This document shows, one piece after another, positions 10,825 to 64,000 of a DNA stretch of 64,000 nt. Under the pieces are notes generated by a model. It did no database searches, was not told the origin of the DNA, and saw nothing but the letters and a program-made list of their open reading frames with translations. The DNA lies in contig JABJNO010000018.1 in assembly GCA_018664825.1 (NCBI GenBank), positions 22,722 through 86,721 on the forward strand. Reading direction: 5' to 3'. Both the position numbers and the translations under genes were made by a program. Source of the stretch: Candidatus Parcubacteria bacterium. Its GTDB lineage: Bacteria; Patescibacteriota; Patescibacteriia; UBA1558; GWA2-36-10. Numbering within the stretch: position 1 is the stretch's first letter; each line of letters starts with the position of its first letter.

Positions 10825-10848
10825 TTTTGTATTTTTATTTTTTATAAA

Positions 10849-12471
10849 CTAATTACTTGTGCCGCAATTTGTACCAGAATTAGGCCAAGGACAGTCGGTA
10901 CCAACTGCTGCATTATTATTATCACAAAGACACGTGCCTGTAGGATCTGTACATTCACAGAAATACCAACAGTTTTGTCTCAAATCACTGATTCCAGAAG
11001 TAAGAGTCGGGGTATAGTCTGTAGATGGATCCAGTATATCGTGCCTTATCTCGACAATATGACTACTATTGAGTCCCAACCAAAAATTGACATCTCCAAG
11101 CGTGCTCTGATGAAATTGGATGTTTGTACTATTGATTGAGCTAGACAATAAATTTTCATCAAAAGTAACTCTGATTGGCTCAGATACAGAAGCATCGTCG
11201 TTGTCTTCCATATTGTTTATTTCTGGTGGATCAAGATCGATTGTATTATTGGTGCTAAATGTCCAGGTAAAATCTCCTCCTGCACCACCATCGCCATCAC
11301 CATCCAAAATATTTCCAGCCATGTCTGTAATCACATTTGGAAAAGCCCCGGTACCACTGACCGTGGATAGCATGGTAGCGCTAGCAGGCAAACAATATAC
11401 ATCTCCTCCACAAGAGTTTGAACCACACCAAACATCAGTAATAAATTCAACAGTTTGATATTGATTTGATATCCAATATTGTCCATCCAGAGTAACCCCA
11501 CCCTCGTCTACTGTAATATTTGTAAAAGGAGGATGTACACCAGCTGAAACTATAGGATTGACGGGTTCAGTAAAGTTTATTTGAACTACGCTATTTCGAG
11601 GATTATCAAGACCAACTGGCAAAACAGTATCTACTCTAGGTGGTGTGATATCTACTTCATTGTTTACTGTAAAGTCCCAGTCATAGTATCCGGTAAATGG
11701 GAAAGCAGTCGCCCCTGCTACAGTAGCCAGATCATCCAGGGTCATTTTGTAGGGAACGTCACCAACGTCATCACCCAAAAGAGGTGCTGGATCAAACTGG
11801 AAATTCAGCAACTCGGCTGTATCATAAGTGACTATCAGTTCTGAATTGATCAAACTAACACCGTCGTGAGGAGCCAAAATAATATGGCTTGTATCAGCCT
11901 GACACTCTACCAATGTACCAACTATAGTAGTACAGGTAGTCCCAACCACTATATCCGTAGCATCAATTGGTTCTTTGAAAGTTACAAAAATATTGGTATT
12001 TCTAGGAATCTCACGTGCATTACGAGAAGGATAATGACTTTCTATAACTCCACCTCCCAAACCAAGTCCTCCGGTATATCCGCCACCAGATCCACCACTA
12101 CCCCCTACCGTTCCGTCGTATCCTTCTTGAAGTAAGAAGCGGGCAATAGCATAAGAAGATAATATTATAGCTAGTCCAATAACACCGTTGATAATAATCT
12201 TTTTAGCACGATCAATTTTATCTGCATTGCCACCGGAAGTCATCCAAATATAACCACCATACAAAATAATAACGGTGGCTAAAATACCTAGGAAACCTAG
12301 GAATATATTAATAATACCAGCAACCATATCTCTAAGGTCTCTAGTACCCAAATTTGTATTGGACAAATCATTTACTCCATATACATCTTGAGCGCTGGCT
12401 ACTTCTGGCAACAAAAAAATAACTGCAAAAAAGAGAAATAATAATACAGTTATTTTTTTATTAGTTAGCAT
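10849..12471 (-). CDS. 540-aa secreted/anchored protein that shares the N-terminal signal plus double-helix module with the giant protein; its passenger region is different, Gly-rich and Cys-rich
   Basis: Its N-terminus reads AQDVYGVNDLSNTNLGTRDLRDMVAGIINIFLGFLGILATVIILYGGYIWMTSGGNADKIDRAKKII. The corresponding region of the 3098-aa protein reads AQDVFGVNDLTDVNLGTRSLQDTIAGIINIFLGFLGILAVVLILYGGFIWMTSAGNTDKIQRAKMII. Only 24 nt separate the two genes. Confidence 0.7.
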   Translation of the reverse strand: MLTNKKITVLLFLFFAVIFLLPEVASAQDVYGVNDLSNTNLGTRDLRDMVAGIINIFLGFLGILATVIILYGGYIWMTSGGNADKIDRAKKIIINGVIGLAIILSSYAIARFLLQEGYDGTVGGSGGSGGGYTGGLGLGGGVIESHYPSRNAREIPRNTNIFVTFKEPIDATDIVVGTTCTTIVGTLVECQADTSHIILAPHDGVSLINSELIVTYDTAELLNFQFDPAPLLGDDVGDVPYKMTLDDLATVAGATAFPFTGYYDWDFTVNNEVDITPPRVDTVLPVGLDNPRNSVVQINFTEPVNPIVSAGVHPPFTNITVDEGGVTLDGQYWISNQYQTVEFITDVWCGSNSCGGDVYCLPASATMLSTVSGTGAFPNVITDMAGNILDGDGDGGAGGDFTWTFSTNNTIDLDPPEINNMEDNDDASVSEPIRVTFDENLLSSSINSTNIQFHQSTLGDVNFWLGLNSSHIVEIRHDILDPSTDYTPTLTSGISDLRQNCWYFCECTDPTGTCLCDNNNAAVGTDCPWPNSGTNCGTSN

Positions 12472-21516: not shown

Positions 21517-21705
21517 ATGTTGAAAAATTTTCTCTGCACCGAGTGCAAAAAGTCCTTTGAAATTGATGGTTTTGGTCAAGAAGTAGAAATGACAAGCAAC
21601 GCCAAAAACACTGGTCATCATGGACTATGCGAGGCTTGCCAAAAGGCTACTGGAAAATACCCTGACCTATTGACAATAGGAGCACCGAAAGGAATGAAAA
21701 CATGA
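21517..21705 (+). CDS. Small zinc-ribbon protein (CxxC...CxxC)
   Basis: It reads LCTECKK...CEACQK and is preceded by the strongest SD in the window (aaaggagtgaaaacATG). Confidence 0.5.
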   Translation: MLKNFLCTECKKSFEIDGFGQEVEMTSNAKNTGHHGLCEACQKATGKYPDLLTIGAPKGMKT

Positions 21706-21896
21706 CACAAAAAGTAGAAATACTAAGTGGATTTTTCACTTGCTGTGAATGTCGAGAACTTTTTTATCGACAACCCAATGCCCAAGGTGGGCACGATGAA
21801 CGTAAGGTCAAAGAAGAAGAATGTGGAGGCAGTGATTGTCCAATGAATATTTGTAGCCCTTGTTACAAAAAAGTAACTAAAAAACCCTCGAAGTAA
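21702..21896 (+). CDS. Small Cys-rich zinc-ribbon protein, ATGA-coupled to the previous one
   Basis: It reads FFTCCECREL...CGGSDCPMNICSPCYKK and overlaps the upstream gene by ATGA. Confidence 0.5.
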   Translation: MTQKVEILSGFFTCCECRELFYRQPNAQGGHDERKVKEEECGGSDCPMNICSPCYKKVTKKPSK

Positions 21897-44188: not shown

Positions 44189-44848
44189 TTAAGAAGACGT
44201 ATTTGTAAACTCTACCTTTCCCCAAATTTGGTGTTTTTTGGCTAATTTTTTAGCTTTTTTTAATAAATGTTTATTTTTTACTATAGTCAAATTTCCTTCT
44301 ATTTGTATATCATCTGGAAGATCTTCTATCTCGGTCATGGACAATTTTAAGTCACCGACTATTCTCAACCTTTTTGGCAATTTTTTCATTTCAGTAAAAT
44401 GTATATAAGCATCTCCCAATATAGTCATATTGTCTGGTAAATCAAAATCCTCAAAACCCTCTATTTCAAAATGTTCATTTTTGTATATTACCTCTCTGGT
44501 TTCTGGTTTAAGAATAATATTCTCCTCAAACCACTCATCTGCATCTGACTGGGGAATTCCAGCGTCTTTATTTTTTGTTTCTCTACTGAGAAAAACCGCC
44601 CGTATAAGCTGGTCTTTTATTTTTTCTGGATCAAAAAAGAATTTTTTAATTCCATCCATAATAGCTATAAAAGAACTCCGTAATTCCTTTAAACGACGAG
44701 TGTCTTTGTTGGTAATACTGGAATAAAAAATTTCTCCACATTCTTCCATGAGTTTTTTTAAAAACTCCAGATCCCCTCTTAAATCTTTACAATTTTCTAT
44801 TGGCATAATATTTATTCTACTATAATTTTGCAATTTTAAAAACAGCAA
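44189..44848 (-). CDS. Long member (A) of the window-expanded Cys-motif family, with C-terminal LRR-like LPxxLxIxGxL repeats and a basic KKAKKLAKK tail
   Basis: The N-terminal motif is IENCKDLRGDLEFL. The FYV-equivalent is KKFFFDPEKI. The repeats are LPDNMTILGDAY, LPKRLRIVGDLKL and LPDDIQIEGNLTI. Confidence 0.5.
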   Translation of the reverse strand: MLFLKLQNYSRINIMPIENCKDLRGDLEFLKKLMEECGEIFYSSITNKDTRRLKELRSSFIAIMDGIKKFFFDPEKIKDQLIRAVFLSRETKNKDAGIPQSDADEWFEENIILKPETREVIYKNEHFEIEGFEDFDLPDNMTILGDAYIHFTEMKKLPKRLRIVGDLKLSMTEIEDLPDDIQIEGNLTIVKNKHLLKKAKKLAKKHQIWGKVEFTNTSS

Positions 44849-44876
44849 ACTAAATTGCTGTTTTTAAGTATAAGTT

Positions 44877-45089
44877 TTATTTCTTATCATCACCTTGAGC
44901 TTCTTCTTCGGCGCAAAATTCTTCGATTTGCGCTTCTAGCTCAGCGATGTCTTTTTCGGCTTGTTCTTTGAACTCTGTTAGTTCTTGGACCTCTTTGTCA
45001 AATTCCATTTTATCTAGTGTCTCTACAGTGTCTTTGGCCTCTTCTCCCATTTCTTGCCGAAAGCCTTGTCCCATTTTTTGTTCTGGCAT
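44877..45089 (-). CDS. Small acidic coiled-coil protein (70 aa) between family member A and the AAA+ gene
   Basis: It is an ORF with E/K-rich heptads. Confidence 0.35.
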   Translation of the reverse strand: MPEQKMGQGFRQEMGEEAKDTVETLDKMEFDKEVQELTEFKEQAEKDIAELEAQIEEFCAEEEAQGDDKK

Positions 45090-45134
45090 ATTTTTTCAAT
45101 TAAATTAATATTCTTATTAAATTACCTAATTTTA

Positions 45135-48032
45135 TTACGTTTTACCCTTAAGTGCACTTTTGATAAGCTCTCCTTTTGCATCCAAGTCCATACCATCAGC
45201 AGCACTCCTTGTCTCTTCATTTATTATACCTTTTTTCTGAAGTAAATCAAGTAGCATGTCATAAAAATCAGAACTTTCCTGAACAAACTCTTCGTCTGAT
45301 GTATTGTCTCTAAAGTCTTCATTAACGACTATCTCGCCATCTTTTCTCTCTACTAGCTTGGTTTTTTCTATATGTTCTCTATATTCTCTAATTTCAGATG
45401 CATTGTCAAATAAATCAGCCTGCAAAACCGCTACTTTGATTTCTCTAACATCTGTAATTAATCTTTGTACTTTTTCAGCCATTTCATCAATTCCAGCCAT
45501 TTCTTTGTAGACTCCTTGCATTTTTTCATACTCAGCTTTCTTTCTTGGTGGTAGATAACCAAATAACAATTGTAAAGTCTCCAGTGAGGAGAAATATTGT
45601 ATATTGTATTTACCATCGGTATTGAGTAATCCAGCTGCATCACCATTTTGATTGATTGATTTGTATTTGTCTATAGATTTATGAGGATTAAATGAAGTTA
45701 GAGTCTTTTGCCAATTTTTTAAATTTTCCTCCTGATCTCCTCCGGTTGTTGTGGTATAATCTGGCCATTTTTCACTACTCTGAAAAAAGCCTGCTTTTTC
45801 TAAAATAGAATAAATAATTACTTGCTCTTCTGGAAATTGATCATACTTTCTAATATACTTATATAGATAATATTCAATATCCATATTGGTACCTTCATCC
45901 ATGTATCCGCCAATTACATTATCAATCAACTCACGCATAGTAAGATTTGATTTTTTTAATTTATCACTATAATTGGTGGTAGTACCAGCCCCAATGAGTT
46001 GATCAAGATTTCTAAACTCAGGCAAATTTTCCGCACTACCTTCAAACATATCCATAATAATGCGAGCACCCATACTCAAGCGATATATATCCTTGAATAC
46101 AGAAAACCTATCTTCCTGCTTGACCAAAAGCTCTGCACCCATCCTGTCATTAAGAAGTTTGACCAACAACACTTGGAAAATTTGATCGTGCTTGGCTCTT
46201 TCTTTTGATTTTTTAACAACTTCCATAGCTTCTGGAAAATCCGCAAAAGCAGTATCGGCTAATTTTTCTAAATCAAGCCTACCCAAAAGTTCATCAATAT
46301 TTGACACCTCTCTTGATTGAGGAAGGTATCCCATCTTGATTGGGTGGATTCTACTATATGAAGCTGGATCCATATCGTTGTATCTAGCCTGCTTGTATCT
46401 TTCACCGGTATTACCAGTCCAGATCACACAATAACCATCTTTGACTTGAATATCTCCGGAGTCAGTCCTAGTCTGGATGATGTCACCGGGTTTTTTGGTA
46501 AGTAGATCATTGAAGGCAATCAATACCTCTGGAGTAATAGCATTGGCCTCATCAATAATCAAGGGTTTACCTTCGGTCATGGCTTTGTACATAGCACCTA
46601 GAACATAACGCCCCTGTACCTGATTGCCAAATAAACCTTCTAATTGCTGTTCTATGTCTGCAGAAAATTCTTCTGGTAATTTTTCTTTATTATCTTCTAC
46701 ATATTGATCAAATTTTTCTTTATCAAAATCTTCACCAGGATTGGCGTGATCAAAATCTTCTTTCAATCTATTCAAGACAATTGTATCTCTAAAATCACCT
46801 TTACGCTTTGCAAGCTCTGCCATTAATACATCGTCTGGAACACTATCGTCAAAAATCTCACCAGTACCTGAGTCTTTGTTTAAAATATTTAAAACTTCAG
46901 AAAGTGATAATTTTTGAATTTTAAATTCTTCGGTAAATCTATCAGGATCCAAAAATTTACTACCCGAAACTATGATAGGCTCATTCTTGAATCTAGTACG
47001 AGATAGATGCACAGCTAAAGCGGTTTTCCCGGTACCAAAGTCTCCATGAAGATACACGATGGTCGGGGGTCTTTTTGTCAAAGAAGGCATAGCCTCTTCT
47101 ATAATCTTTTTTACATAGTCTGTTTCTACTATTTTACCTGTATTTAATAATTCATGTAGATATTTCATTTCCTTGCTATAATTTACATAAGCAGGAATAA
47201 AATCTTTTTCTACTATATTGCCCTGTTCATCATATGTTGCCTCTGTGCCCAGTTTGTATTCAGTATTATATTTTTTGGCAGCCAACCTCTCTACTCTACT
47301 CGTAGACTTCTGCATCTTTTCTTCATCTACTCCGTGAATCCTAGCTTTTTCACCCTGAGTACGCAAAGAATCTTCATTACGACTAACATTGGCCATATGG
47401 ATTCCCCTTTTGACAGTTTCAATCTGACGTAAAGAGTCCCTCACTTCTGGCAATGAACTTCTAGAATATGCTTTTATTTTTTGAATATCTTCTTCTTCAT
47501 AAGCATCCATCTCTTCACTCAAGGTACTATAATGTGCCTCCATTAAGACATCAAATCTAGCCAGTTTACCCAAAGTACGGACTTCTACCTCTGCTTCCAT
47601 CTCTCTTTCTTTTTTGGCGTCTCTTGCATGAACCCCGTTGACGTCCAAAATCTTTTTTCTTTCTGTCTTATCTATAGAGTCCATGAGCATTTCCATAAAA
47701 ACATCCCTATCAACTCCCCACACAGCATCAAAATCAGCGAGTCTTATAGGATGAGCAAATTTATTTTTTGGATCAGCTTCTTGAGCATTTTTCAAATGCT
47801 CTTGAACAACAGCCTTTAAATCATCTGGCAAAGTATCAAATACCTCTGAGGTCACCAAATTTTCATAAGTCATGTACTTTTTGATCTCATCAAAAATAGA
47901 CAACATCTGCTCTCGCTTGATTTTGTACTCATAAGCCAATCTCTCTGCCTCCAAAGCCTCTGCTACTTCCGCTCTCTGCTCTTCATCATTTAGCTCTGGT
48001 GAAGGTATGGTTGGCATTCTTGATTCTTTCAT
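45135..48032 (-). CDS. Very large (965 aa) AAA+ ATPase of the MoxR/AAA_5-like type, with about 320-aa N-terminal and about 350-aa C-terminal extensions
   Basis: Walker A reads VYLHGDFGTGKTALAV. Walker B reads KPLIIDEANAI. Sensor-1 is WTGNTGERY. An insertion sits between Walker A and B. Confidence 0.7.
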   Translation of the reverse strand: MKESRMPTIPSPELNDEEQRAEVAEALEAERLAYEYKIKREQMLSIFDEIKKYMTYENLVTSEVFDTLPDDLKAVVQEHLKNAQEADPKNKFAHPIRLADFDAVWGVDRDVFMEMLMDSIDKTERKKILDVNGVHARDAKKEREMEAEVEVRTLGKLARFDVLMEAHYSTLSEEMDAYEEEDIQKIKAYSRSSLPEVRDSLRQIETVKRGIHMANVSRNEDSLRTQGEKARIHGVDEEKMQKSTSRVERLAAKKYNTEYKLGTEATYDEQGNIVEKDFIPAYVNYSKEMKYLHELLNTGKIVETDYVKKIIEEAMPSLTKRPPTIVYLHGDFGTGKTALAVHLSRTRFKNEPIIVSGSKFLDPDRFTEEFKIQKLSLSEVLNILNKDSGTGEIFDDSVPDDVLMAELAKRKGDFRDTIVLNRLKEDFDHANPGEDFDKEKFDQYVEDNKEKLPEEFSADIEQQLEGLFGNQVQGRYVLGAMYKAMTEGKPLIIDEANAITPEVLIAFNDLLTKKPGDIIQTRTDSGDIQVKDGYCVIWTGNTGERYKQARYNDMDPASYSRIHPIKMGYLPQSREVSNIDELLGRLDLEKLADTAFADFPEAMEVVKKSKERAKHDQIFQVLLVKLLNDRMGAELLVKQEDRFSVFKDIYRLSMGARIIMDMFEGSAENLPEFRNLDQLIGAGTTTNYSDKLKKSNLTMRELIDNVIGGYMDEGTNMDIEYYLYKYIRKYDQFPEEQVIIYSILEKAGFFQSSEKWPDYTTTTGGDQEENLKNWQKTLTSFNPHKSIDKYKSINQNGDAAGLLNTDGKYNIQYFSSLETLQLLFGYLPPRKKAEYEKMQGVYKEMAGIDEMAEKVQRLITDVREIKVAVLQADLFDNASEIREYREHIEKTKLVERKDGEIVVNEDFRDNTSDEEFVQESSDFYDMLLDLLQKKGIINEETRSAADGMDLDAKGELIKSALKGKT

Positions 48033-48065
48033 ATTTTTTTGAAAAATAATCTTTATCTCTTATAT

Positions 48066-48094
48066 ATAATAAAATTTATATCACTTTAAGTCAA
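48066..48094 (-). promoter_or_regulatory. Putative promoter (TTGACT-17-TATTAT) upstream of the AAA+ gene
   Basis: The minus strand reads ttgact-17-tattat, about 30 nt upstream of the ATG. Confidence 0.3.
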
Positions 48095-48095
48095 T

Positions 48096-51000
48096 CTATT
48101 TTTCTATTCCATCTAGAATTTCATTCATACTTTTCTCAACTTTTTCGGCAATAATTTTTTTGAGCAGCCTGCTAAAAGATTCAACAATTTGCTCGGGAGT
48201 ATTGGCGCGGATTACATTTTCCTTGCCATGTCTTTCGCTAAGACCCTCAAGGGCTGCCTCATCTCCTTCGTGATCACCAATTGCAAACCCACCAACTCCA
48301 ATACCCGTCTCTCCTTTGAAAGCAGCTAAATTTTCATTGGCTTCTTCATTTTTGCCCAAAAATCCACCGTCACAAATTTGGATTACTACTTCAGTCAATT
48401 TGTTATCAGCAATCATTTGTTTGAGCTCTGGATCATTACGATCTCTGAGCATCTTGATCCATAGATCTGCATCAAAGGTGACTTCGCTAGCATTTATTTT
48501 TTTAAATGCCCTCAGGGTACTGATAGTCTCTGCGTCAATGTCTATTTGTGGTTTTTCAGATTCTTCGTCATCCAAAAATGATAGATCCTGCACATCAAAT
48601 TCTTTTATTTTTCTGGCCTCACCATCGTTTCCAAAAAGCCATAATTGAGTGTCACAAATTATATCCAAATTTTCTGGAGCACTATCACCCAAAATCTCTC
48701 TCATTTTGTCTCTAAACAATATCCTAAAAGATCTTAAAGAAGAGTTGAGTAACATTATAGACATGCGCATTTGATCAATCTTACCGCTCATACTACCAGA
48801 ATTATCAATTGCCAAAGTCATGCGCAACATTTTTGGTCTGAGTTCTGAAATAACTCTTTCTACAAGTTGTTCGTAAATAAGTCTATCATCAACCTCAATT
48901 CCCATTTCTATTTCTGGAAAATGTTTTTGCAATCTTTTGACGTCCAATTTTCCACTACGATAATATTTGTCTTTAAAGACTTCGATACGACTAGCAATAT
49001 TGTTTACTACCTCTAGCCAATTTTTGGCCATCTTGTCAGCATAGGGCCTTATCTTTTTTTCTAGTTCTATAAAATCTTTGACAACCCCCTCATTGCTAAG
49101 GTCTTTTCCAGACCAACCACTGTCCGCATCATCGCCCGCTTCAGCCTCTGCTTTGTCCAGGGCTTCCAATAATTTTTTTATCCTAGCTTTGTCGTATTTA
49201 GCTTCTTTATACTCTTCTGATTTTTTGGCTTCTTCTAATTCTCTTAGATTGGCCTCCCTTTGATCTTGCTCTATCATTTGTTCTAGAGCTTCTTTGAGAG
49301 GATTTACAATATCTTTTAGGTCAGTATCATCACCATCTTGATCTTCGGGATTTGTCTCTTGTGGATCACCTTCTCCATCTTCATTATCGTCATCGTCGTC
49401 TCCATCTTCATTGTCGTCGTCTTTATCATCAAAATAATTTTTACGTTTATCAGGTGAAGATTTTGAAGATTTTCCCTTTTGTTTTTTTTGATCTTTATTA
49501 TATAAATTTAAATTAACATACGGATCAAACACTTCTTGTATATCATAAGTGTAATCTGTACTACCTGCCATAGCCTGTACTTCTCTCTCTTCAGAATATT
49601 CTACGGTTACAGAAATTACCTCTCCATCTTTTCCTTCTGTCACTTGGGTAATTATACCTATCTTTCCTCTGTTTGGATCATTTTTATCCACATTGATAAT
49701 TTTGTCACCCTGAGACCAAACTTTCTCTTCCATGTCTGGATCACCACCATCACCGCCATCACCACCTTCTCCTTCGCCTTTTTCTTCTGGCATTGTGACA
49801 TCAAAGCTATCATCCAAAATACAAAGCATAGTAAATATCGGCTCCAAAGTAGTCCTCATTATTTTACTTCTTTCGCTTTGATTATGTTTTAGGGGAAATG
49901 TCCAAGAATATTTTTTTGATTTTGTTTTAGTCTTAAATTCTTCAAAAATATCCAAAAAACTCACGTCTTTTTTTCTCTCTATACCTAATTGAGCTATTAC
50001 TTTTCTCAACCCTGCCTTGTACTGCATCTTGGCTCTTTTGGTATTTACTTGATCAGTAGTCAGGTTGTCAAAAAAATCATTCATCCTGCGGATAAACTCT
50101 GGTTGATTGTTTTTATGTTTTTTATATATTGTATGTAATCCTGGGACAGCAGATAGATTCATAACATTTGACTGAAAATCTGGGTCAACTTCTTCGACCT
50201 TGCCATTTCTTTCTTCAAAATTGGCTACCTTGACAGTAGTAGTCATAAATTCAATATATCTTTTGAGTTGAGCTGGGTCGTCTTTGTATTTTTCCAAAAC
50301 CTTGTTGAGTAATTCTTCATACACTTCGTCTATTGGGCCATTGAGAGCCCTTTCCACATCTTCGTGTACCACAAATTTTCCATTTGGATTTTCTGGACTC
50401 TGGATATCATCTTCATCAAGATCCAACATTTGATTTTTTATAAAAAAAGTCATAAATTGACCAGATCTCATCATGTCTGGTTTTACTTTGGTAAAATCAA
50501 TACCTTGTTCATGGTCTTCGGCTGTAAGTTTGACCAAATTTCCTTTGCCTTTACCAACTTTTTTTATTTCTTTCTTGTCTGGGTTTTTAGGATCTTCTAC
50601 TTCTGCGTATTCCCCGTTACCCTCTCCTACTTCGTTGTACATTACAAAAAGAAGATCGGTATAAGCATCTTTTATTTCTTGGGCTCTTTTTGGAGATACA
50701 TTTTCTCCAAAGTGAGCTGTTTGTTTGACCAGATGATTGACAATCCCATCTTCTAAAACATTATAAAAATGTCTATAAGTATTAAAAAGAGAAAGTGTTT
50801 TTTGTGAATTATCCTTATCACGCATTCTTTTTCTTTCTTCGTATTTGAATTGAGCTATCTGACCATGTTTACCAGCTGGATCAAGCTCTTCCATGGTTTT
50901 ACGATGAGCAAACTCATGAAGCATACCAAACATAATTTGTTCTATATTCATGCCTGTGCCTTCTTTTGAGTTTTTGAATTCTGGCACACTCAAACAAATA

Positions 51001-51257
51001 GTATCAATGCTAGCTGCATAAGAAAAACCCATTCCAAAAACCATGTTGAAACGGGCATTTTTACCTTCCAAAAATGTTCCTATTGTGTCGAGATGTTGCT
51101 GGGCCCACTCACTCATTTCGTCCCTATATGGCCACAGCTCTTTGGGTACACCATTTTGATCCTTGTTTGGATCTTGTTCTGGCTCTTTCTTACCCTTTTT
51201 ATCACCTCCGTCAGCTTGTACTGACATTTCAATTTTAGATCTTCCTTCAAATGACAT
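48096..51257 (-). CDS. 1053-aa protein with an N-terminal HExxH metallopeptidase-like domain (DUF2201_N-like), a poly-acidic linker and a C-terminal von Willebrand A domain with a MIDAS motif
   Basis: It carries MFGMLHEFAHRK (HExxH), DDKDDDNEDGDDDDDNEDGEGD and TLAIDNSGSMSG (DxSxS MIDAS). It lies immediately upstream of the AAA+ gene. Confidence 0.7.
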   Translation of the reverse strand: MSFEGRSKIEMSVQADGGDKKGKKEPEQDPNKDQNGVPKELWPYRDEMSEWAQQHLDTIGTFLEGKNARFNMVFGMGFSYAASIDTICLSVPEFKNSKEGTGMNIEQIMFGMLHEFAHRKTMEELDPAGKHGQIAQFKYEERKRMRDKDNSQKTLSLFNTYRHFYNVLEDGIVNHLVKQTAHFGENVSPKRAQEIKDAYTDLLFVMYNEVGEGNGEYAEVEDPKNPDKKEIKKVGKGKGNLVKLTAEDHEQGIDFTKVKPDMMRSGQFMTFFIKNQMLDLDEDDIQSPENPNGKFVVHEDVERALNGPIDEVYEELLNKVLEKYKDDPAQLKRYIEFMTTTVKVANFEERNGKVEEVDPDFQSNVMNLSAVPGLHTIYKKHKNNQPEFIRRMNDFFDNLTTDQVNTKRAKMQYKAGLRKVIAQLGIERKKDVSFLDIFEEFKTKTKSKKYSWTFPLKHNQSERSKIMRTTLEPIFTMLCILDDSFDVTMPEEKGEGEGGDGGDGGDPDMEEKVWSQGDKIINVDKNDPNRGKIGIITQVTEGKDGEVISVTVEYSEEREVQAMAGSTDYTYDIQEVFDPYVNLNLYNKDQKKQKGKSSKSSPDKRKNYFDDKDDDNEDGDDDDDNEDGEGDPQETNPEDQDGDDTDLKDIVNPLKEALEQMIEQDQREANLRELEEAKKSEEYKEAKYDKARIKKLLEALDKAEAEAGDDADSGWSGKDLSNEGVVKDFIELEKKIRPYADKMAKNWLEVVNNIASRIEVFKDKYYRSGKLDVKRLQKHFPEIEMGIEVDDRLIYEQLVERVISELRPKMLRMTLAIDNSGSMSGKIDQMRMSIMLLNSSLRSFRILFRDKMREILGDSAPENLDIICDTQLWLFGNDGEARKIKEFDVQDLSFLDDEESEKPQIDIDAETISTLRAFKKINASEVTFDADLWIKMLRDRNDPELKQMIADNKLTEVVIQICDGGFLGKNEEANENLAAFKGETGIGVGGFAIGDHEGDEAALEGLSERHGKENVIRANTPEQIVESFSRLLKKIIAEKVEKSMNEILDGIEK

Positions 51258-51266
51258 AGGCTAAAA

Positions 51267-51295
51267 TTACATACTTTATTATAATACATTTTTAC
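51267..51295 (-). promoter_or_regulatory. Consensus sigma70-type promoter TTGACA-17-TATAAT driving the vWA/AAA+ pair
   Basis: The minus strand reads ttgaca (51290-51295 RC), a 17-nt spacer, then tataat (51267-51272 RC), about 20 nt upstream of the ATG at 51257. Confidence 0.45.
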
Positions 51296-51335
51296 TAAAA
51301 TGTCAAAAAATACCCCGTTTCTACCCCTTTTTTAC

Positions 51336-51962
51336 TTAATTAATGACTGTTATTTGTCCTTTTTCCTTTAATTCTTTGGCTCTATCCAGTAAATCAGCAT
51401 CAACATGTATAATAACCGCCCTCAAATCATCTGGTAAATCAGTCAGCCCAGTACGCCTTATAAACAATTCGTTGACTGTCATCCCCGATGGTAACTCATC
51501 TAGCTTGGTACCAGTCAAACGTAAATCTTCTTTGATCTGTAAATTTTTTGGCAATCTGACAACATCACAATTTTTTAGCTGCAAATTTCCTCCGATTATC
51601 AAATTGTCCGGTAAGGTAGTAAATTTTTTATCATTAAAATGCCTAGGAGCATGAAGCTGTGTTTCCATCTCATCTCTATAGATCATAACTCTAGAACCAA
51701 TCAGCTCTCTTGCCTCTACCTCGTCTTGTGCTTCACCTACTTCTACAAAAAACTGTGCCCAAGAATTTTCTGTTTTGATAACAAAAATATCTTTTTTTAT
51801 TTCTCCTATCTCTACCAATATTGCGTCTTTTAATTTAAACAAACCATCCCTATCTTCTCTTTTGGCAGAAGCTAGGGCAGTCTCCAATTTTTTTATTGTA
51901 ACTCTGGCAATAACAACCCTATCAAATAGTTGCTGACAATTTTTAGGTTTTGTATCTGGCAT
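51336..51962 (-). CDS. Long member (B) of the Cys-motif family with four LRR-like LP repeats and a basic tail; directly abuts the rmuC stop
   Basis: It carries KPKNCQQLFDRVVIARV...AQFFVEVGEA. The repeats are LPDNLIIGGNLQL, LPKNLQIKEDLRL, LPSGMTVNELFI and LPDDLRAVIIHV, ending KELKEKGQITVIN. Confidence 0.5.
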   Translation of the reverse strand: MPDTKPKNCQQLFDRVVIARVTIKKLETALASAKREDRDGLFKLKDAILVEIGEIKKDIFVIKTENSWAQFFVEVGEAQDEVEARELIGSRVMIYRDEMETQLHAPRHFNDKKFTTLPDNLIIGGNLQLKNCDVVRLPKNLQIKEDLRLTGTKLDELPSGMTVNELFIRRTGLTDLPDDLRAVIIHVDADLLDRAKELKEKGQITVIN

Positions 51963-53009
51963 TTATTCTAATCTTGGTTTTTCAACATCCTCCAATTCTA
52001 ACTCTCCGCCCTTGCCACTAATCTTTAAGATATCTTTATCTATTTTCTTAAACTCCTTACTAGAAAAATTATAGGCATTGGCAACTGTACCTAGGTGAGT
52101 ACCTAGTTTTTTATGATACTCAGCATAGGCTAACATGTGTTTTTGTAATTTCTCTACATTTTTACGTATTTCTTTGGCGGATTCTTCTATCTGCAAAGCC
52201 TTGAGCCCTTGTAAGACAGTCTGCAGGTAGGCCGCAAAAGTAGTCGGTGATACAATGATTACTTTTTTCTCATTGAAAGCATAGTCAATCAAAGATCTTG
52301 TGTTTACCTTGACTGCTCCTACTTCGTTTATAAGTAAATCATAATATATCCCCTCAGCCGGAATAAACATAAAAGCAAAATCCAAGGTACCTTCATTTGG
52401 TCTGATATATTTTGCAGTTTCGTCAATACGTTTCTTCAAATCATTTTTAAATTCTTTTTCCAAAACCATTTTTTTGGCTTTATCTTTTTCATCTATAATA
52501 CGACGATAATTTTCTAAAGAAAATTTGGCATCAACTGGTAAAATCTTATCTTTTATTTTAACAATAGCATCAACAGCTTCACCATTTTTGAAATGGTACT
52601 GCATTTCATAATTTTGCGGTGGCAAAATATTTGATAAAATCATTTCTAAGCCTGCCTCACCAAGGTTGCCCCTAGTCTTGGCGTTGGTGAGTACTTTTTC
52701 TAAATTTTGTAGTTGATCTGTAAATCCTACTACCTGCTTGTTTGTTTCCTCCAATTTCAAAAGCTTCTCGGTCATTTCTTTGGAAATACGAGAAGTCTCC
52801 ATAAATTGATCTTGTAGCATCTTGGAAGAGTGTTGGTTGGTTTTGTCTATCTTTTCACCTAGTTGTTGAGTAAGATTATTTATCTGTTGTTGCAACATCA
52901 ACATTGCCTTGTCATCTTTTTTTTCTTCGACAGGAGCCCGTTTTTTCATCAAAAACCAGATTATCGCCCCGACGCCGACTACTATTAAGATTGTATTTAG
53001 ATATTCCAT
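51963..53009 (-). CDS. rmuC: DNA recombination protein RmuC
   Basis: It has an N-terminal TM, a coiled coil, and a C-terminal RmuC nuclease-like domain (FMFIP...VIIVSPTT). Confidence 0.8.
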   Translation of the reverse strand: MEYLNTILIVVGVGAIIWFLMKKRAPVEEKKDDKAMLMLQQQINNLTQQLGEKIDKTNQHSSKMLQDQFMETSRISKEMTEKLLKLEETNKQVVGFTDQLQNLEKVLTNAKTRGNLGEAGLEMILSNILPPQNYEMQYHFKNGEAVDAIVKIKDKILPVDAKFSLENYRRIIDEKDKAKKMVLEKEFKNDLKKRIDETAKYIRPNEGTLDFAFMFIPAEGIYYDLLINEVGAVKVNTRSLIDYAFNEKKVIIVSPTTFAAYLQTVLQGLKALQIEESAKEIRKNVEKLQKHMLAYAEYHKKLGTHLGTVANAYNFSSKEFKKIDKDILKISGKGGELELEDVEKPRLE

Positions 53010-55226: not shown

Positions 55227-55484
55227 TTATTTAATATTATCTTCCCTGAAGGATATTCGAGAACCATCTCCTATCGTATCCTTAACATGTGCAAATTCAT
55301 CCTTCAATATTTTGAATCTTCTACTAAACTCATCTCTTGCCGCAACAATCAAGTGTAAGTCTCTTGACTCCCCCAGCACGTCAATTTGTTTTGAAATATC
55401 CTCACTTAATCCTCTTGAAATTTCAATATCTATTCTAAGGGTTTTACATATATTCGATTTATAAACTCTCAATTTCATAAGCAA
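55227..55484 (-). CDS. Cys-motif family member (85 aa)
   Basis: It carries SNICKTLRIDIEISRG and IVAARDEF. Confidence 0.45.
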   Translation of the reverse strand: MLMKLRVYKSNICKTLRIDIEISRGLSEDISKQIDVLGESRDLHLIVAARDEFSRRFKILKDEFAHVKDTIGDGSRISFREDNIK

Positions 55485-55513: not shown

Positions 55514-55729
55514 TTATTCAAATAAATTATTCGCTTCCATTTCTATAGACTGTGGCAAAATCCCCCTTAGGGTTCTATACTTTATAATCAACTTATCTCT
55601 AGCATCAATAGCCGGTTCAATGTTTCCTGTTTTTTTTGTTTTTTCAACCTCTATTAAAACATCTTCATTCCATTCGCGCAATTTTTCAATCCCCCCTCTC
55701 ATTTCTTTACATATGTGTGATTTAGTCAT
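55514..55729 (-). CDS. Cys-motif family member (71 aa), ATGA-coupled to the metG stop
   Basis: It reads MTKSHICKEMRGGIEKLREW. Its start overlaps the metG stop. Confidence 0.45.
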   Translation of the reverse strand: MTKSHICKEMRGGIEKLREWNEDVLIEVEKTKKTGNIEPAIDARDKLIIKYRTLRGILPQSIEMEANNLFE

Positions 55730-57177
55730 AATCTTGGAAATAATGGTTTTTCTGGTTTGGTTATTTTATCAGCTGACAAAATATTTATTATCTGTTCACT
55801 GGTCTTTGGCATAAAAGATTTCAATGAAATAGCCACCGAATAAAGATCATTTGTTAATTCCTCTAAAATTTCTTTTAACTTATCTTTATTACTTTCATCT
55901 TTGGCTAGTACCCATGGCTTGGTTTCATCAATTAGGCCATTGCCCTTTTTGATAATCTGCCAGATAGTAAGCAGAGCTTCTCTAAAACGTAATTGCTTTA
56001 TTTCTTCGCCACCCAGATCCGCATCTTTGATATTAATATCAACCTTGCCATCCAAATATTTTTCTACCATGTTGGTAACACGATTTACTAGATTACCTAG
56101 ACCATTTACCAAATCTGCATTGTACTTGGTAGCAAACTCCTCTACTTTGATATCAGATTCACTTCCAAAAGAAAACTGAGAAAGAATTAGATATTTAGTC
56201 ACTTCGGCTCCGTATTTTTCTACCAATTCATTTGGACTGATTACGTTGCCCAAAGTCTTTGACATCTTTTGTCCGTCAATAGTAAAAAATCCATGCACGT
56301 ACATACTCTTTGGCAATTCTACATCCATAGCCATCAACATAGCTGGCCATAATAATGTATGAAATTTCAAAATCTCCAAAGCCATCAAGTGTACATCGGC
56401 TGGCCAAAACTTTTTGAAGTTTTCACCATCTGGATAGCCCAAGGCTGTAATATAGTTTGATAGTGCATCCACCCAGACATAAGTCTTTTGATCATCATCC
56501 CAAGGTATATCAATGCCCCAAGATACAGACTTACTGCTACGAGAAATAGAAATATCTGGCATTCCTTGTTTTATCAATCCCAAAACTTCTTTTTTTCTAC
56601 CTTCTGGATATATGATTAGCTCGCCTGATTCTATTTTTTGTTTGATAGCTGGTAAAAAATCACCAAGTTTGAAAAACCAGTTTTTTTCTGAAAGTTTTTC
56701 TGGTTCTTTGTTGTGATCTGGGCATTTACCATCGACCAAGTCATTTTCGGTCATAAACTTTTCACAGCCCACACAATACAAACCTTCATATTCCCCTTCA
56801 TACAACACATCGTTGCCTTGGGGAGTTTTTGCTTCTTTCAAACTCTTTAAAATATCAACAACAGTTTTTTTGTGATCATCATCGGTGGTACGAATAAAAT
56901 AATCATTTTCAATTTCTAGATTTTTCCAAGCCTCTTTAAACAATGTACTTATTTGATCTGTAAACTCCTGAGGGGAAACATTGTTTTTCTCAGCTGCTTC
57001 TGCAATCTTGGCACCATGCTCGTCTGTACCAGTCAAGAAAAATACATTTTCTTTGCCAATTTTGCCACGATAATATCTAGCCAAAACATCAGCTATAATA
57101 GTTGTATAAGCGTGCCCTATATGGGGCTTGTCATTTACATAGTATATTGGTGTTGTTACGTAAAACTTTTCTTTCAT
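55726..57177 (-). CDS. metG: Methionyl-tRNA synthetase (short form)
   Basis: HIGH reads HIGHAYT and KMSKS reads KMSKT. Zn-knuckle cysteines are present. Confidence 0.9.
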   Translation of the reverse strand: MKEKFYVTTPIYYVNDKPHIGHAYTTIIADVLARYYRGKIGKENVFFLTGTDEHGAKIAEAAEKNNVSPQEFTDQISTLFKEAWKNLEIENDYFIRTTDDDHKKTVVDILKSLKEAKTPQGNDVLYEGEYEGLYCVGCEKFMTENDLVDGKCPDHNKEPEKLSEKNWFFKLGDFLPAIKQKIESGELIIYPEGRKKEVLGLIKQGMPDISISRSSKSVSWGIDIPWDDDQKTYVWVDALSNYITALGYPDGENFKKFWPADVHLMALEILKFHTLLWPAMLMAMDVELPKSMYVHGFFTIDGQKMSKTLGNVISPNELVEKYGAEVTKYLILSQFSFGSESDIKVEEFATKYNADLVNGLGNLVNRVTNMVEKYLDGKVDINIKDADLGGEEIKQLRFREALLTIWQIIKKGNGLIDETKPWVLAKDESNKDKLKEILEELTNDLYSVAISLKSFMPKTSEQIINILSADKITKPEKPLFPRL

Positions 57178-57179
57178 AT

Positions 57180-57686
57180 TTATCCTAATTCTTTAAATCT
57201 TTCTTTTAATACTTCCTTTACTCTATCCACGTCTTCATTGTTTACTTCAATCCTTAGTGGAGTTGTTGAACCTTCTTTACCTAGATACAAAAGCTTTTCT
57301 TCTTTTAATCTAGAGTCAGGTTGCTGAGGATTATAAACTCTAATGTTTTCACTAAAGCTCTGATATCCACCAATATTATGTTTCTTTGTTTTATTGTTTT
57401 TCATATCTTTGATTTCAATATCATCACCCATCAAAGAATATCTTTTTTCTTTTACCATCAAAGTCTTGTTTAGAATCAACCAAAAAGCTAATATACCACC
57501 TATATAAGCCATTGCTAAACTAATACCAAATACTTGTTTATTTGTATCTGGATTATCATTGTTTAAATAAACAATATAGTAAACTAATCCACTAAGGTGA
57601 AAAACGGTACCCATTATAACTCTGAGCATTTTACTTCCTTTTTTCCTTTGTTCTGATGGTCTATAAAACCATTGTACTGAACTCAT
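57180..57686 (-). CDS. Membrane protein with two TM helices and a C-terminal bPH-like soluble domain (tentative)
   Basis: This rests on hydrophobic helices and a C-terminal region of about 90 aa. Confidence 0.35.
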   Translation of the reverse strand: MSSVQWFYRPSEQRKKGSKMLRVIMGTVFHLSGLVYYIVYLNNDNPDTNKQVFGISLAMAYIGGILAFWLILNKTLMVKEKRYSLMGDDIEIKDMKNNKTKKHNIGGYQSFSENIRVYNPQQPDSRLKEEKLLYLGKEGSTTPLRIEVNNEDVDRVKEVLKERFKELG

Positions 57687-61204: not shown

Positions 61205-61549
61205 TTAAATTCTTTTAAAATAATATTCTTTTTGTTCTATTTGTTTTTTTATTTCGTTGTTATCAAGCTGAGCCATGGCGGCCATATCTTTGGAGGCGAT
61301 AACATTTTGAGTTTTATTTAATTCAATAATTCTCTCTGAGTACATTTCTCTTAATTTCAATAATTCTCTATCCACATAAAAATTATCCAAAACATACCTC
61401 AGGTCTGTAGCGGCCCGTTGGATGGCAAATTTGATATGCCCCTTTCCCCGATCAATAATCCCTTGGAAAATTTCATCATGCTCTGCCTTGAATTCCTCGA
61501 CTTGCTTGAATTCGTTTTTTAATTGTTCACAAACTTCTGTTTTAATCAT
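61205..61549 (-). CDS. Tandem-array Cys-motif family member 5 of 5 (114 aa)
   Basis: It carries MIKTEVCEQLK...DNFYVDRELL...VIASKD. Confidence 0.5.
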   Translation of the reverse strand: MIKTEVCEQLKNEFKQVEEFKAEHDEIFQGIIDRGKGHIKFAIQRAATDLRYVLDNFYVDRELLKLREMYSERIIELNKTQNVIASKDMAAMAQLDNNEIKKQIEQKEYYFKRI

Positions 61550-61833
61550 CTAAAAAATTTATCCTTTAAAAAATAAGGTACCCTGTCTTTTATCAATTTA
61601 TCTTTCATTGATTCTAATTCTGTAGGAGTCCAGAACCCTGTATAATTATCATCATTTTTATAACTACCTATACTACGTAAAATATGAGGATCAACATAAA
61701 AGGCATTTATAGCATCCCTAATGCTAGTAAGTTTGACTCCAAAATCTTTATCACCCGCAGCAATGCTCGTCAACTGAAGTCCCGTGATAGTAATTTCGTT
61801 TCTTAACTCTTCACAAAGCTCTACTTTATTCAT
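61546..61833 (-). CDS. Tandem-array Cys-motif family member 4 of 5 (95 aa)
   Basis: It carries MNKVELCEELR...NAFYVDPHIL...VPYFL, with ATGA overlaps on both sides. Confidence 0.5.
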   Translation of the reverse strand: MNKVELCEELRNEITITGLQLTSIAAGDKDFGVKLTSIRDAINAFYVDPHILRSIGSYKNDDNYTGFWTPTELESMKDKLIKDRVPYFLKDKFFR

Positions 61834-62164
61834 AAGGCTCTTGTAAAAAATAAGGTATACCCTTGGCTCTTTCTTCTTTTATCTGCTTCTTCATGCTTGT
61901 TTTAATTTTTTCTAACTTTTCAGCTTTTTCTGCACCAACAAATTTTAGGTATATCAAATCTATCCCTTGCCGATAAATATCTAGAGCTGTTTGATTCATA
62001 TAAAACTCATCAATTTTGTCTTGAATAAATTCACTCTGCTCTATTGTGGCCTTTCTTACTTCTTCCAAGCCTAAATTTTTTATATCAAAATCAAACTTAT
62101 CCAAATATCCTCTGACAGTTATTATATCGGCTCTAAGTTTTTCACAGACTTCTGTTTTAGTCAT
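61826..62164 (-). CDS. Tandem-array Cys-motif family member 3 of 5 (112 aa)
   Basis: It carries MTKTEVCEKLRADI...DEFYMNQTAL...IPYFL. Confidence 0.5.
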   Translation of the reverse strand: MTKTEVCEKLRADIITVRGYLDKFDFDIKNLGLEEVRKATIEQSEFIQDKIDEFYMNQTALDIYRQGIDLIYLKFVGAEKAEKLEKIKTSMKKQIKEERAKGIPYFLQEPYE

Positions 62165-62507
62165 CTAGTTTCATCGTCTTAAAATATGGAATTTTTCTTA
62201 TCTTTTGCTCGAACACCATGTCTTCAAATTTTCTAACATCACTTGAAAGAATTTTGAATAATACATGGAACTCTTCTTGATTGGTTTTAAGGTTTGAAAG
62301 TTTCTTCTCTGCTTTTTCTAATAAACTTAATGTAGCAGGGCGTACATAAAAATTGTCTATGTTGTTCCTAGCCTGCTTTAAAGCTTCTACTAGGTCATCC
62401 AGAATAGCCATATCCCGACTAGCTATCATATTATGAATAGCCTGCATTTCATCTTTCAGTACACCAAAATCTATTCTTATTTTTTCGCAAACTTCTACTT
62501 TAGTCAT
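62157..62507 (-). CDS. Tandem-array Cys-motif family member 2 of 5 (116 aa)
   Basis: It carries MTKVEVCEKIR...MIASRD...DNFYVRPATL...IPYF. Confidence 0.5.
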   Translation of the reverse strand: MTKVEVCEKIRIDFGVLKDEMQAIHNMIASRDMAILDDLVEALKQARNNIDNFYVRPATLSLLEKAEKKLSNLKTNQEEFHVLFKILSSDVRKFEDMVFEQKIRKIPYFKTMKLDD

Positions 62508-62841
62508 TTATCTTTTCTCTTAAAAAATATGGAATTTTTTCTTTTCTCATCCTCTCTACTTTGGGTGCCAAGTGTTTGTATAGTCTAATATCAAAATTAG
62601 GACTTCCTTGAGGCATTTTCTCAAAATGTAAATAATGCTTTAAAATTCTTGACTCTACATAAAATTCATCCATCCTATCCTTGATAAAATCAATCATCTC
62701 ATCAATAACCAAATCTTCTTCAAGTTGTTTCAATAATTTTAAATCACGGCTAGCTATAACTTTATTGATTCCACCTTGCAGTGATCCTTTTAATATAGCA
62801 ATGTCTGCCTTGAGTTTTTTACATTCTTGTAGTTTAGTCAT
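62500..62841 (-). CDS. Tandem-array Cys-motif family member 1 of 5 (113 aa)
   Basis: It carries MTKLQECKKLKADI...VIASRD...DEFYVESRIL...IPYFL. Confidence 0.5.
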   Translation of the reverse strand: MTKLQECKKLKADIAILKGSLQGGINKVIASRDLKLLKQLEEDLVIDEMIDFIKDRMDEFYVESRILKHYLHFEKMPQGSPNFDIRLYKHLAPKVERMRKEKIPYFLREKIND

Positions 62842-63389
62842 TATCTTATTTCAAATTTTTCTATCTTTCCCTCTTTTTTCAATCTCTCGGCATCTTTTTT
62901 GTGCTTTTTGTTTATAATCAGTTTACCCGTGACATAAAGATTGAGTGGTAGCTCAAAAAGATTTGTCCAATCTGAGACATCTAGATCTCCTTCAAATTCC
63001 AAATCTTCTGCCAAAACTGATAATTTAGCATTTTTTAAAACAAAGGAACGCGGAATAACAACTTTTTTTCTATCATGATCAATATGCACATATTTTTTTA
63101 TAAAAGAATAAATCCTATGACGATCCTCTCCCATGCCCTTGGTTGCTTTTATATAATGTACAAGTGCGTTTCTTATAAACTCCTCCAAATCCGCCCCCTC
63201 AGGCCTGTCACGAAGTACGGGATAATTTCTTTTATTCCCATATTTATAAATCCTTCTCTTCAAAAATTTTAATTCTTCAAGCCCACCCTTATCTTCTAGC
63301 ATACTTAGATTAATAGAAAAATCTCTTAGCCTTTCTTTGGCTATAGCAATAGAATCTCTAAAATGCTGACAATCTGGAAATAAAATCAT
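62841..63389 (-). CDS. Long member (C) of the Cys-motif family with an LRR-like C-terminal part and a basic tail; TAATG-coupled to glyS
   Basis: It carries FPDCQHFRDSIAIAKERLRDF, then LEFEGDLDV and LPLNLYVTGKLII, ending KKDAERLKKEGKIEKFEIR. Confidence 0.5.
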   Translation of the reverse strand: MILFPDCQHFRDSIAIAKERLRDFSINLSMLEDKGGLEELKFLKRRIYKYGNKRNYPVLRDRPEGADLEEFIRNALVHYIKATKGMGEDRHRIYSFIKKYVHIDHDRKKVVIPRSFVLKNAKLSVLAEDLEFEGDLDVSDWTNLFELPLNLYVTGKLIINKKHKKDAERLKKEGKIEKFEIR

Positions 63390-64000
63390 TAGCCTAATTT
63401 ATTTTCAAAATATTTATCAAGCTCATCTATAGCTATACGATCTTGCTCCATGGTATCTCTGTCTCTGATAGTCACTTGCTTGTCTTCCAGGCTATCAAAA
63501 TCTATAGTCACACAATACGGAGTACCGATTTCGTCTTGACGACGATAACGTTTACCAATGGCCTGCGTCTCATCATAGACACATACAAAATTTTGTTTGA
63601 GCTTCATCAATATATCTCGAGATAGATTGGCTAGTGGTTCTTTTTTGGATAAAGGTAAAACCGCAATCTTGATAGGAGCCAAGGCATAAGGAAGTTTCAA
63701 AACAACTTCTTTGTCCTTGATGGCCTTGGTGGTAGTACTACGACCACCCTCTATCTCTGTATAAGCAGCCAACATGACAGCCAAAAATGATCTATCTACT
63801 CCCAAGCTAGGTTCGATGACGTGAGGTAAATATTTTTCATTGGTAATTGGATCTCTATAAGTCAAATCTTGTTTTGAGTGTTTTTGGTGTTGACTAAGGT
63901 CATAATCAGTACGATAAGCCAATCCCCAAAGCTCTTTTTGTCCAAATGGAAATTTGTATTCAAAATCAATGGTTCGCTTTGAATAAAAAGCCCTGTCTTT
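63389..64000 (-). CDS. glyS: Glycyl-tRNA synthetase (dimeric alpha2 class II type), C-terminal part; the gene continues beyond the window
   Basis: The reading frame stays open to position 64000 (KDRAFYSKRTIDFEYKFPFGQKELWGLAYRTDYDL...). The anticodon-binding domain tail reads VTIRDRDTMEQDRIAIDELDKYF. The apparent Met in the track at 63922 is a TTG codon. Confidence 0.75.
   Translation of the reverse strand, partial: KDRAFYSKRTIDFEYKFPFGQKELWGLAYRTDYDLSQHQKHSKQDLTYRDPITNEKYLPHVIEPSLGVDRSFLAVMLAAYTEIEGGRSTTTKAIKDKEVVLKLPYALAPIKIAVLPLSKKEPLANLSRDILMKLKQNFVCVYDETQAIGKRYRRQDEIGTPYCVTIDFDSLEDKQVTIRDRDTMEQDRIAIDELDKYFENKLG

Follow-up and report, generated by a model that had tools for sequence, protein, structure and literature searches.

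Short genes of a divergent, lineage-restricted family at the stop codons of metG, glyQS and rmuC in a marine Parcubacteria genome

We analysed a 64,000 nt stretch of a Parcubacteria contig (the window), in which ten short open-reading frames (ORFs) that appear to form one very divergent protein family lie amongst housekeeping genes, and in which members of this family begin on, or directly after, the stop codons of metG, glyQS and rmuC. On balance we think it probable that these genes are a lineage-restricted, fast-diversifying orphan family whose copies were inserted where expressed genes have their native stops, and are passively co-expressed with them, the upstream genes not being functional partners. 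The window has a GC content of 37%, nearly every gene is on the minus strand and separated from the next by a very short spacer, and its proteins correspond to the NCBI locus tags HON36_*. The family members and the genes that they adjoin are as follows.

63389..64000, minus strand: glyQS, 3′ part (class II GlyRS; ORF end 63389; HGTP_anticodon, 1e-21)
62841..63389, minus strand: 182-aa long-form member, head of the array (helical N-domain and short LRR)
61205..62841, minus strand: five tandem helical members of ~95-116 aa behind the 182-aa head (62500-62841, 62157-62507, 61826-62164, 61546-61833 and 61205-61549)
55726..57177, minus strand: metG (MetRS, 483 aa; Pfam tRNA-synt_1g, 2e-97)
55514..55729, minus strand: 71-aa short-form member, N-domain only, with its ATG overlapping the metG TGA (ATGA)
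55227..55478, minus strand: 83-aa short-form member, 35 nt 3′ of the 71-aa ORF
51963..53009, minus strand: rmuC (Pfam RmuC, 8e-54)
51336..51962, minus strand: 208-aa long-form member (helical hairpin and LRR), starting on the base after the rmuC stop
44189..44806, minus strand: 205-aa long-form member, paralog of the 208-aa form (BLAST 5e-9)

The three stop/start junctions had been pointed out in an earlier sequence-only reading, and all three were found in place. At metG, the plus-strand letters 'tcat' at 55726-55729 are ATGA on the minus strand, the metG TGA lying inside the ATG of the 71-aa ORF. The 182-aa ORF shares one base with the stop of the GlyRS gene, read ...GGC TAATG ATT, although this gene is glyQS and not glyS as had been proposed; the full-length GlyRS consists of tRNA-synt_2b and HGTP_anticodon (Pfam), an architecture which identifies the dimeric glyQS type. 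Between rmuC and the 208-aa ORF there are 0 bases. All three upstream genes had been described as essential, rmuC is not usually an essential gene. Within the array the junctions, from the 182-aa head on, are -1, -8, -8, -8 and -4 nt, and 3′ of the last member the M16 peptidase gene still has its native spacer of 20 nt. Similarly, the 83-aa ORF is followed by a native 14-nt spacer and then cvpA. The 205-aa member is uncoupled, with a 70-nt gap separating it from a 70-aa ORF upstream.

The ten ORFs share a helical N-domain of ~60 aa starting M-[TNI]-K-x-E-x-C, in which the Cys (position 7-9) is invariant, and they fall into four sub-groups: the five tandem members of 95-116 aa, the 182-aa head, the 71- and 83-aa pair, and the 208- and 205-aa pair. 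BLAST connects members inside sub-groups only (for example, 2e-5 between the 83-aa and 71-aa ORFs), whilst the group A HMM reaches the 83-aa ORF at 7e-5. When N-terminal HMMs were built with one group left out, the left-out members ranked right after the training sequences and above ~8,400 background ORFs, at E-values of 1e-4 to 0.06, the 182-aa group being the weakest (0.045-0.058). An hhalign comparison of long and short forms gave an E-value of 1.7e-4 over the first 50 residues, and the 182-aa form aligns over its full length with the 205- and 208-aa forms, C-terminal repeats included. We take the family to be real, though very divergent, its unity resting on a weak N-terminal similarity (E 1e-4 to 0.06).

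Three protein forms can be distinguished: the N-domain alone (71 and 83 aa), the N-domain with a helical tail ending PYF (95-116 aa), and the N-domain with a short LRR solenoid (182-208 aa). Neither FYV nor PYF is found in the 71-aa form, and of the C-terminal motif the 83-aa form retains only a degenerate version. The AF2 model of a 113-aa member is an all-helical bundle (pLDDT 81), for which Foldseek against the PDB returned no match with E < 1. For the 208-aa member an N-terminal helical hairpin and a C-terminal beta-solenoid are predicted (pLDDT 70-82), joined by a low-confidence linker, so that the long forms would carry tandem LRR units forming a beta-solenoid, and the long-form sequence profile independently matches PDB 8z5u (Vibrio FlrP) at E 1e-18. 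No Pfam LRR model matched any family member at E ≤ 1, and none of the ten gave a significant match in Pfam, NCBIfam, PHROGs or PADLOC, libraries which likewise showed no defence or phage signal.

FlrP is an LRR protein that is secreted and binds the rod of the polar flagellar motor in Vibrio (bioRxiv 10.64898/2025.12.04.692373). The likeness of the window proteins to it, and to other short bacterial LRR proteins (Leptospira LRR proteins, the LRR domains of IpaH/SspH/XopL effectors), is one of repeat type only, and nothing points to a flagellar role. FlrP has a Sec signal peptide, whereas the N-termini of the long forms (MPDTKPKNCQQLFD..., MILFPDCQHFRD...) read as polar, with no hydrophobic h-region and hence no Sec signal peptide, and no flagellar genes occur within the window. 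Unlike FlrP-type proteins, the long forms have only 3-4 repeats, which are fused to the family-specific helical N-domain.

The sequence-only reading had compared the coupled ORFs to addiction modules, and toxin-antitoxin pairs maintained behind essential genes would account for small adjacent ORFs (71 and 83 aa) that are tightly packed and lineage-specific; as in type II toxin-antitoxin modules the distribution is patchy, and one HigB-like Pfam match was seen on the 116-aa member, at an E-value of 0.05 which is below threshold. We regard this explanation as hardly credible. The 71-aa and the 83-aa ORF are two paralogs rather than a toxin and its antitoxin, the arrays hold four to six paralogs instead of pairs, the searches of Pfam, NCBIfam and PADLOC returned no significant toxin or antitoxin domain in any member, and structure prediction gives simple helical bundles or LRR folds.

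Whether the family belongs to the loci on which it sits can be judged from eight related species (L011 to L017 and L090), whose loci were fetched with MetRS. These closest GTDB species representatives (MetRS 66-80% identical) are MAGs labelled Komeilibacteria, Parcubacteria or Patescibacteria, and share a common backbone of glyQS, M16 peptidase, AI-2E transporter, methylase, TM1266-like gene, 70-aa ORF and metG, continuing through cvpA, tatD, a 107-aa ORF, (a deaminase), rmuC and an atpZ-like gene into the ATP synthase operon. Five family HMMs found no match in these loci at E ≤ 0.1, among 8,444 ORFs. Behind metG comes cvpA in each of the eight, with an unrelated 72-aa membrane ORF between the two in L015; glyQS is followed by M16 after 14-38 nt in L011, L013, L015 and L090, and no member lies behind glyQS in any of the six loci that include this gene (L011, L013, L014, L015, L017 and L090). 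3′ of rmuC, the relatives carry the atp operon (L012) or unrelated, variable small genes. As the backbone is free of the family in all eight relatives, the three family sites would represent insertions into a conserved backbone.

These insertions are precise, each placed at the native upstream stop with the native downstream spacer intact. The C-terminus of MetRS (...PLFPRL*) is native, ending in the same way in L013 and L015, those of GlyRS and RmuC (...PRLE*) end where the relatives' do, and the native spacers before M16 and cvpA are kept, now 3′ of the inserted genes. No flanking direct or inverted repeats were found at the insertion sites, the sole repeat (D1) being the conserved gene start within the array; no integrase, transposase or recombinase lies beside the insertions, and the viral contigs of IMG/VR held no relative of the 208-aa form.

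Several MAG records (L014, L021, L022, L023 and L030), with MetRS 45-70% identical to that of the window, show a Patescibacteria-like gene order around metG where their flanks suffice; their titles read 'uncultured Gammaproteobacteria bacterium' or 'Saccharibacteria' and look unreliable as taxonomy. On the other side of metG in the window, a 168-aa predicted membrane ORF (57180-57686, minus strand; GC 0.29, weak DUF6064 match) separates metG from the conserved 70-aa ORF, leaving only 4 and 2 nt on its two sides. In relatives such as L011 metG directly follows the 70-aa ORF, and in L013 and L015 a different gene of 150-162 aa lies near that spot. Near metG, tight packing is thus seen for unrelated lineage-specific genes as well.

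The rmuC site belongs to a larger difference. From rmuC to the atpZ-like gene (44189-51962, minus strand) the window holds an island of 7.8 kb which the relatives lack (L012 passes from rmuC to atpZ), bracketed by two LRR long forms, the 208-aa member at rmuC and the 205-aa member at the far end. Between them lie a 70-aa ORF and the genes of two large proteins, one acidic, of 1053 aa and without a known domain, the other of 965 aa and carrying an AAA_5 (MoxR/dynein-like) ATPase domain. A VWA domain in the acidic protein, considered on account of a DxSxS-like motif, was unsupported by Pfam or PDB sequence search. The rmuC-atp junction seems to be a variable spot in the clade; small Cys-rich ORF clusters lie on the opposite strand downstream of rmuC in L014 and L016 (14219-15419 and 8069-8832, respectively; reverse strand). 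Elsewhere in the window, an ORF of 3098 aa and its neighbour of 540 aa (1528-12471, minus strand) share an N-terminal stretch of ~130 residues that is 60% identical and has a signal-peptide-like start; both are probably giant surface proteins.

Outside the window the family is found in very few places. The 71-aa protein had itself as its sole match among 5.8 billion protein clusters, and when 1.84 billion (1.84e9) representative proteins were searched with a profile built from the array members, 11 hits were obtained, of which about nine are true, all of them from three glyQS arrays: those of the window, L001 and L091. Two hits were rejected. P0004 (E 3e-43) is an 851-aa protein of ~15 near-perfect 55-residue repeats which matches only through a repeated 'INGFYVG', and illustrates how repeats inflate profile scores; P0011 proved, on reading its sequence, to be a 1385-aa coiled-coil protein, tape-measure-like. 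Metagenome scans with the long-form alignment and with the single 208-aa protein yielded no confirmed relative, in a search that did not recover the source contig itself.

L001 (GCA_003358065.1) is a short contig with the array directly behind glyQS, in the order glyQS, -1, 182 aa, -1, 105 aa, -4, 110 aa, -8, 115 aa, -8 and at least 102 aa at the contig end (gaps in nt). In L091 (Logan ERR15087771) the order is glyQS, 0, 111 aa, -8, 131 aa, +14, 124 aa, -8, 116 aa, +17, M16. Directly behind glyQS, the window and L001 have the 182-aa LRR form as head of the array, and L091 has a helical form of 111 aa. GlyRS is 97% identical to that of the window in L001 and 87.5% in L091, and the array sits between glyQS and M16, where gene order is conserved anyway. 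The glyQS association therefore reads as one inherited insertion in a small clade and not as a repeated association, and the metG site as a second insertion event, seen in one population. Samples from Saanich Inlet and the Hawaii Ocean Time-series carry this population; identical copies occur on ~30 marine metagenome contigs, the population contigs being 99.4-100% identical, and no presence/absence polymorphism was seen, the same arrangement recurring on the ~30 contigs with an identical CvpA, RmuC or 71-aa protein.

The metG pair could also be read as decaying, non-functional remnants of a longer family gene, in which case the overlap with metG would be neutral. The 71- and 83-aa ORFs are the shortest members, with the C-terminal motif missing or degenerate, they have no ortholog outside one population that would show constraint, and the near-identity of the population contigs makes them uninformative on selection. 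Both frames are nevertheless intact in all contigs, the N-domain motif with its invariant Cys is kept and the ATGA junction is preserved, and we consider decay an unlikely account of the pair, though one to be weighed.

The arrays evolve far faster than the gene they follow. Between the window and L001, the C-terminal 177 residues of GlyRS are 97.2% identical (dN 0.029, dS 0.57, omega 0.05), whereas the array orthologs share 59-72% identity (dN 0.18-0.29, omega (dN/dS) 0.15-0.36), the 182-aa member being 72% identical to its L001 ortholog, and one L001 array member is without an ortholog in the window. Between the window and L091, GlyRS is 87.5% and M16 92% identical, yet the L091 array members share ≤35% identity with any window member. 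Overall the array members change 6-10 times faster than glyQS, with gene turnover, and family genes have a GC content of 0.30-0.35 against 0.35-0.40 in their neighbours. The omega values of 0.15-0.36 indicate that the array members are genuine coding genes under some purifying selection, and persistence of the glyQS array over dS > 0.5-1 is compatible with some selected benefit of its position.

These comparisons bear on the proposal that the repeated association with aminoacyl-tRNA synthetase (aaRS) genes is functional, each member serving the enzyme encoded upstream as a dedicated partner or regulator that binds the aaRS or tRNA, with coupling setting their stoichiometry to MetRS and GlyRS. 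Of the three genes to whose stops a member is coupled, two do encode an aaRS, short overlaps are enriched among the subunits of heteromeric complexes (PMC10666635), and the glyQS junction is kept in three lineages. However, metG stands without a member in eight relatives of the same synteny, the 71-aa ORF is unique to one population, the third coupled gene is rmuC and the fourth member is uncoupled. Behind glyQS the head gene itself differs between lineages, divergence at 6-10 times the rate of GlyRS is unlike that of a fixed subunit, and in none of the ten members was a tRNA-binding or aaRS-interaction Pfam domain detected at E ≤ 1. We therefore consider such a partnership very improbable. 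The sequence-only reading had itself held that absence of the association from all related genomes would mean chance insertion; at metG and rmuC the family is absent in all eight related species, and at glyQS the array is kept in L001 and L091 but absent in the next-closest species, so the proposed association is lost at the first two sites and largely so at the third. The link to aaRS genes seems to be a side effect of genes having been inserted where packing is dense throughout.

Eight of the ten family members have a gap of ≤0 nt to the gene upstream, against 23 of 162 background pairs (14%; Fisher p = 2e-5, a value calculated over intra-array junctions that are not independent, because they descended from one another). 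The background consisted of the co-directional non-family pairs in the window and the eight related loci (n = 162), in which ~36% of pairs have a gap of ≤5 nt. Amongst array heads, whose upstream neighbour is a non-family gene, three of four have a gap of ≤0 (p = 0.012, with the threshold chosen post hoc). Upstream of two of the four independent members is an aaRS gene, which somewhat exceeds the naive expectation from 5 aaRS genes in ~65 window ORFs (p roughly 0.03-0.04, as a rough estimate). Coupling exceeds chance, but only moderately. In prokaryotes at large, neighbouring genes are most commonly spaced at -4 or -1 nt (PMC10666635), so the pattern is of an ordinary kind, and what is raised in the family is its frequency alone. 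One of the rare non-family overlaps in the window joins two Cys-rich ORFs of 62 and 64 aa with CxxC motifs (21517-21896, plus strand; 4 nt, ATGA).

Part of the pattern follows from the start of the genes themselves. The conserved start ATGA(C/A/T)TAAA holds a TGA in frame +1 and a TAA in frame +2. With stops in both other frames, an upstream ORF reading in ends within 8 nt, and the -4 and -8 overlaps result mechanically. Both out-of-frame stops are present in six of ten family starts against 2 of 55 other genes, a count inflated by shared descent. The unusual 8-nt overlaps (ATGACTAA / ATGAATAA) join array members in the window (61546-62841), L001 (2245-2592) and L091 (1346 and 2123); in them, codons 2-3 of the downstream gene (Thr/Asn-Lys) give the upstream TAA stop and fix the last upstream residues (…D-D*, …N-D*, …Y-E*). 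At the glyQS junction the gap is -1 in L001 and 0 in L091, despite the different head gene of L091.

It is tempting to see in this start (ATGAnTAAA) a device that allows a copy to settle behind whichever ORF is expressed, at its 3′ end, and captures terminating ribosomes, the family being a selfish 'plug-in' cassette and coupling an evolved property. The exact native-stop position at three sites with the downstream spacer kept, the excess of out-of-frame stops, coupling above background and the slightly higher AT content of the family relative to its neighbours would all fit. But the members inherited the start motif from a common ancestor, so that counting it gives no independent observations; out-of-frame stops occur commonly wherever DNA is AT-rich, a single locus accounts for all A-type members, and the 205-aa member is uncoupled. 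Flanking or terminal repeats, an integrase or transposase, phage or plasmid signals (including PHROG hits and an IMG/VR relative) and presence/absence polymorphism in the ~30 population contigs, as expected of a mobile element or phage cassette, were all absent here, and we judge the cassette quite unlikely. A related conjecture, that the family evolved as a translational hitch-hiker whose start, with its out-of-frame stops, docks copies on the 3′ end of any well-expressed ORF, we hold to be decidedly unlikely. If it were true, copies would need no promoter or ribosome-binding site of their own, being translated by reinitiating ribosomes, and a fast-diversifying group of helical/LRR binding proteins, possibly acting in host interaction of an episymbiotic CPR bacterium, could spread in this way through a promoter-poor genome.

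Under the reading that we favour, of an orphan family co-expressed passively, family genes would have been inserted at three sites in the housekeeping backbone of a marine Parcubacteria/Komeilibacteria-like bacterium, and behind glyQS the inserted genes would then have been amplified in tandem. metG, glyQS and rmuC would be convenient hosts, expressed genes that happened to lie upstream. Zero or negative spacing leaves no room for a promoter or ribosome-binding site, so co-transcription with the upstream gene and translation by termination-reinitiation are to be expected, and a sequence scan found no strong promoter-like or terminator-like site between the coupled genes; a perfect sigma-70 consensus, TTGACA-17-TATAAT, does occur in front of the 1053-aa gene next to them (51306-51278). 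Experiments have demonstrated this type of coupling for -4 and -1 overlaps, and spacers of ~20 nt almost abolish it (PMC6728339, PMC10666635). The suggestion that the family hitch-hikes on the expression of its upstream genes is thus plausible from the spacing, whilst the specific tie to aaRS genes that went with it finds no support.

The arrangement resembles the overlapping gene pairs with termination-reinitiation described by Huber et al. (2019, 2023) in its -4, -1 and 0 spacing, co-directional genes and compact, operon-like array. It differs in that coupling here is deduced from spacing, that the -8 overlaps (ATGACTAA) are unusual, and that the partners are unrelated in function and their pairing is not conserved, whereas in the classical cases the two genes tend to encode subunits of the same complex. 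Another close comparison is with the lineage-specific (ORFan) expansions of CPR/Patescibacteria, a descriptive category and not a mechanism, with which the family shares its absence from Pfam, NCBIfam and PHROG families, its restriction to a few close genomes, tandem arrangement, AT-richness and fast evolution; compared with these it is unusual in sitting exactly on the stops of conserved genes, at several sites.

As speculation, the LRR tail together with the rapid turnover suggests modules that bind proteins and evolve under diversifying or relaxed selection, and the family may be a candidate for a role in how an uncultured episymbiont interacts with a partner or host. Coupling to an essential gene, as seen at these loci, need not mean functional linkage, and caution is due on this point. 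If the plain reading holds, the family would provide an example of how new, lineage-specific genes, placed right on the stop of a gene already expressed, gain expression in a streamlined CPR genome.
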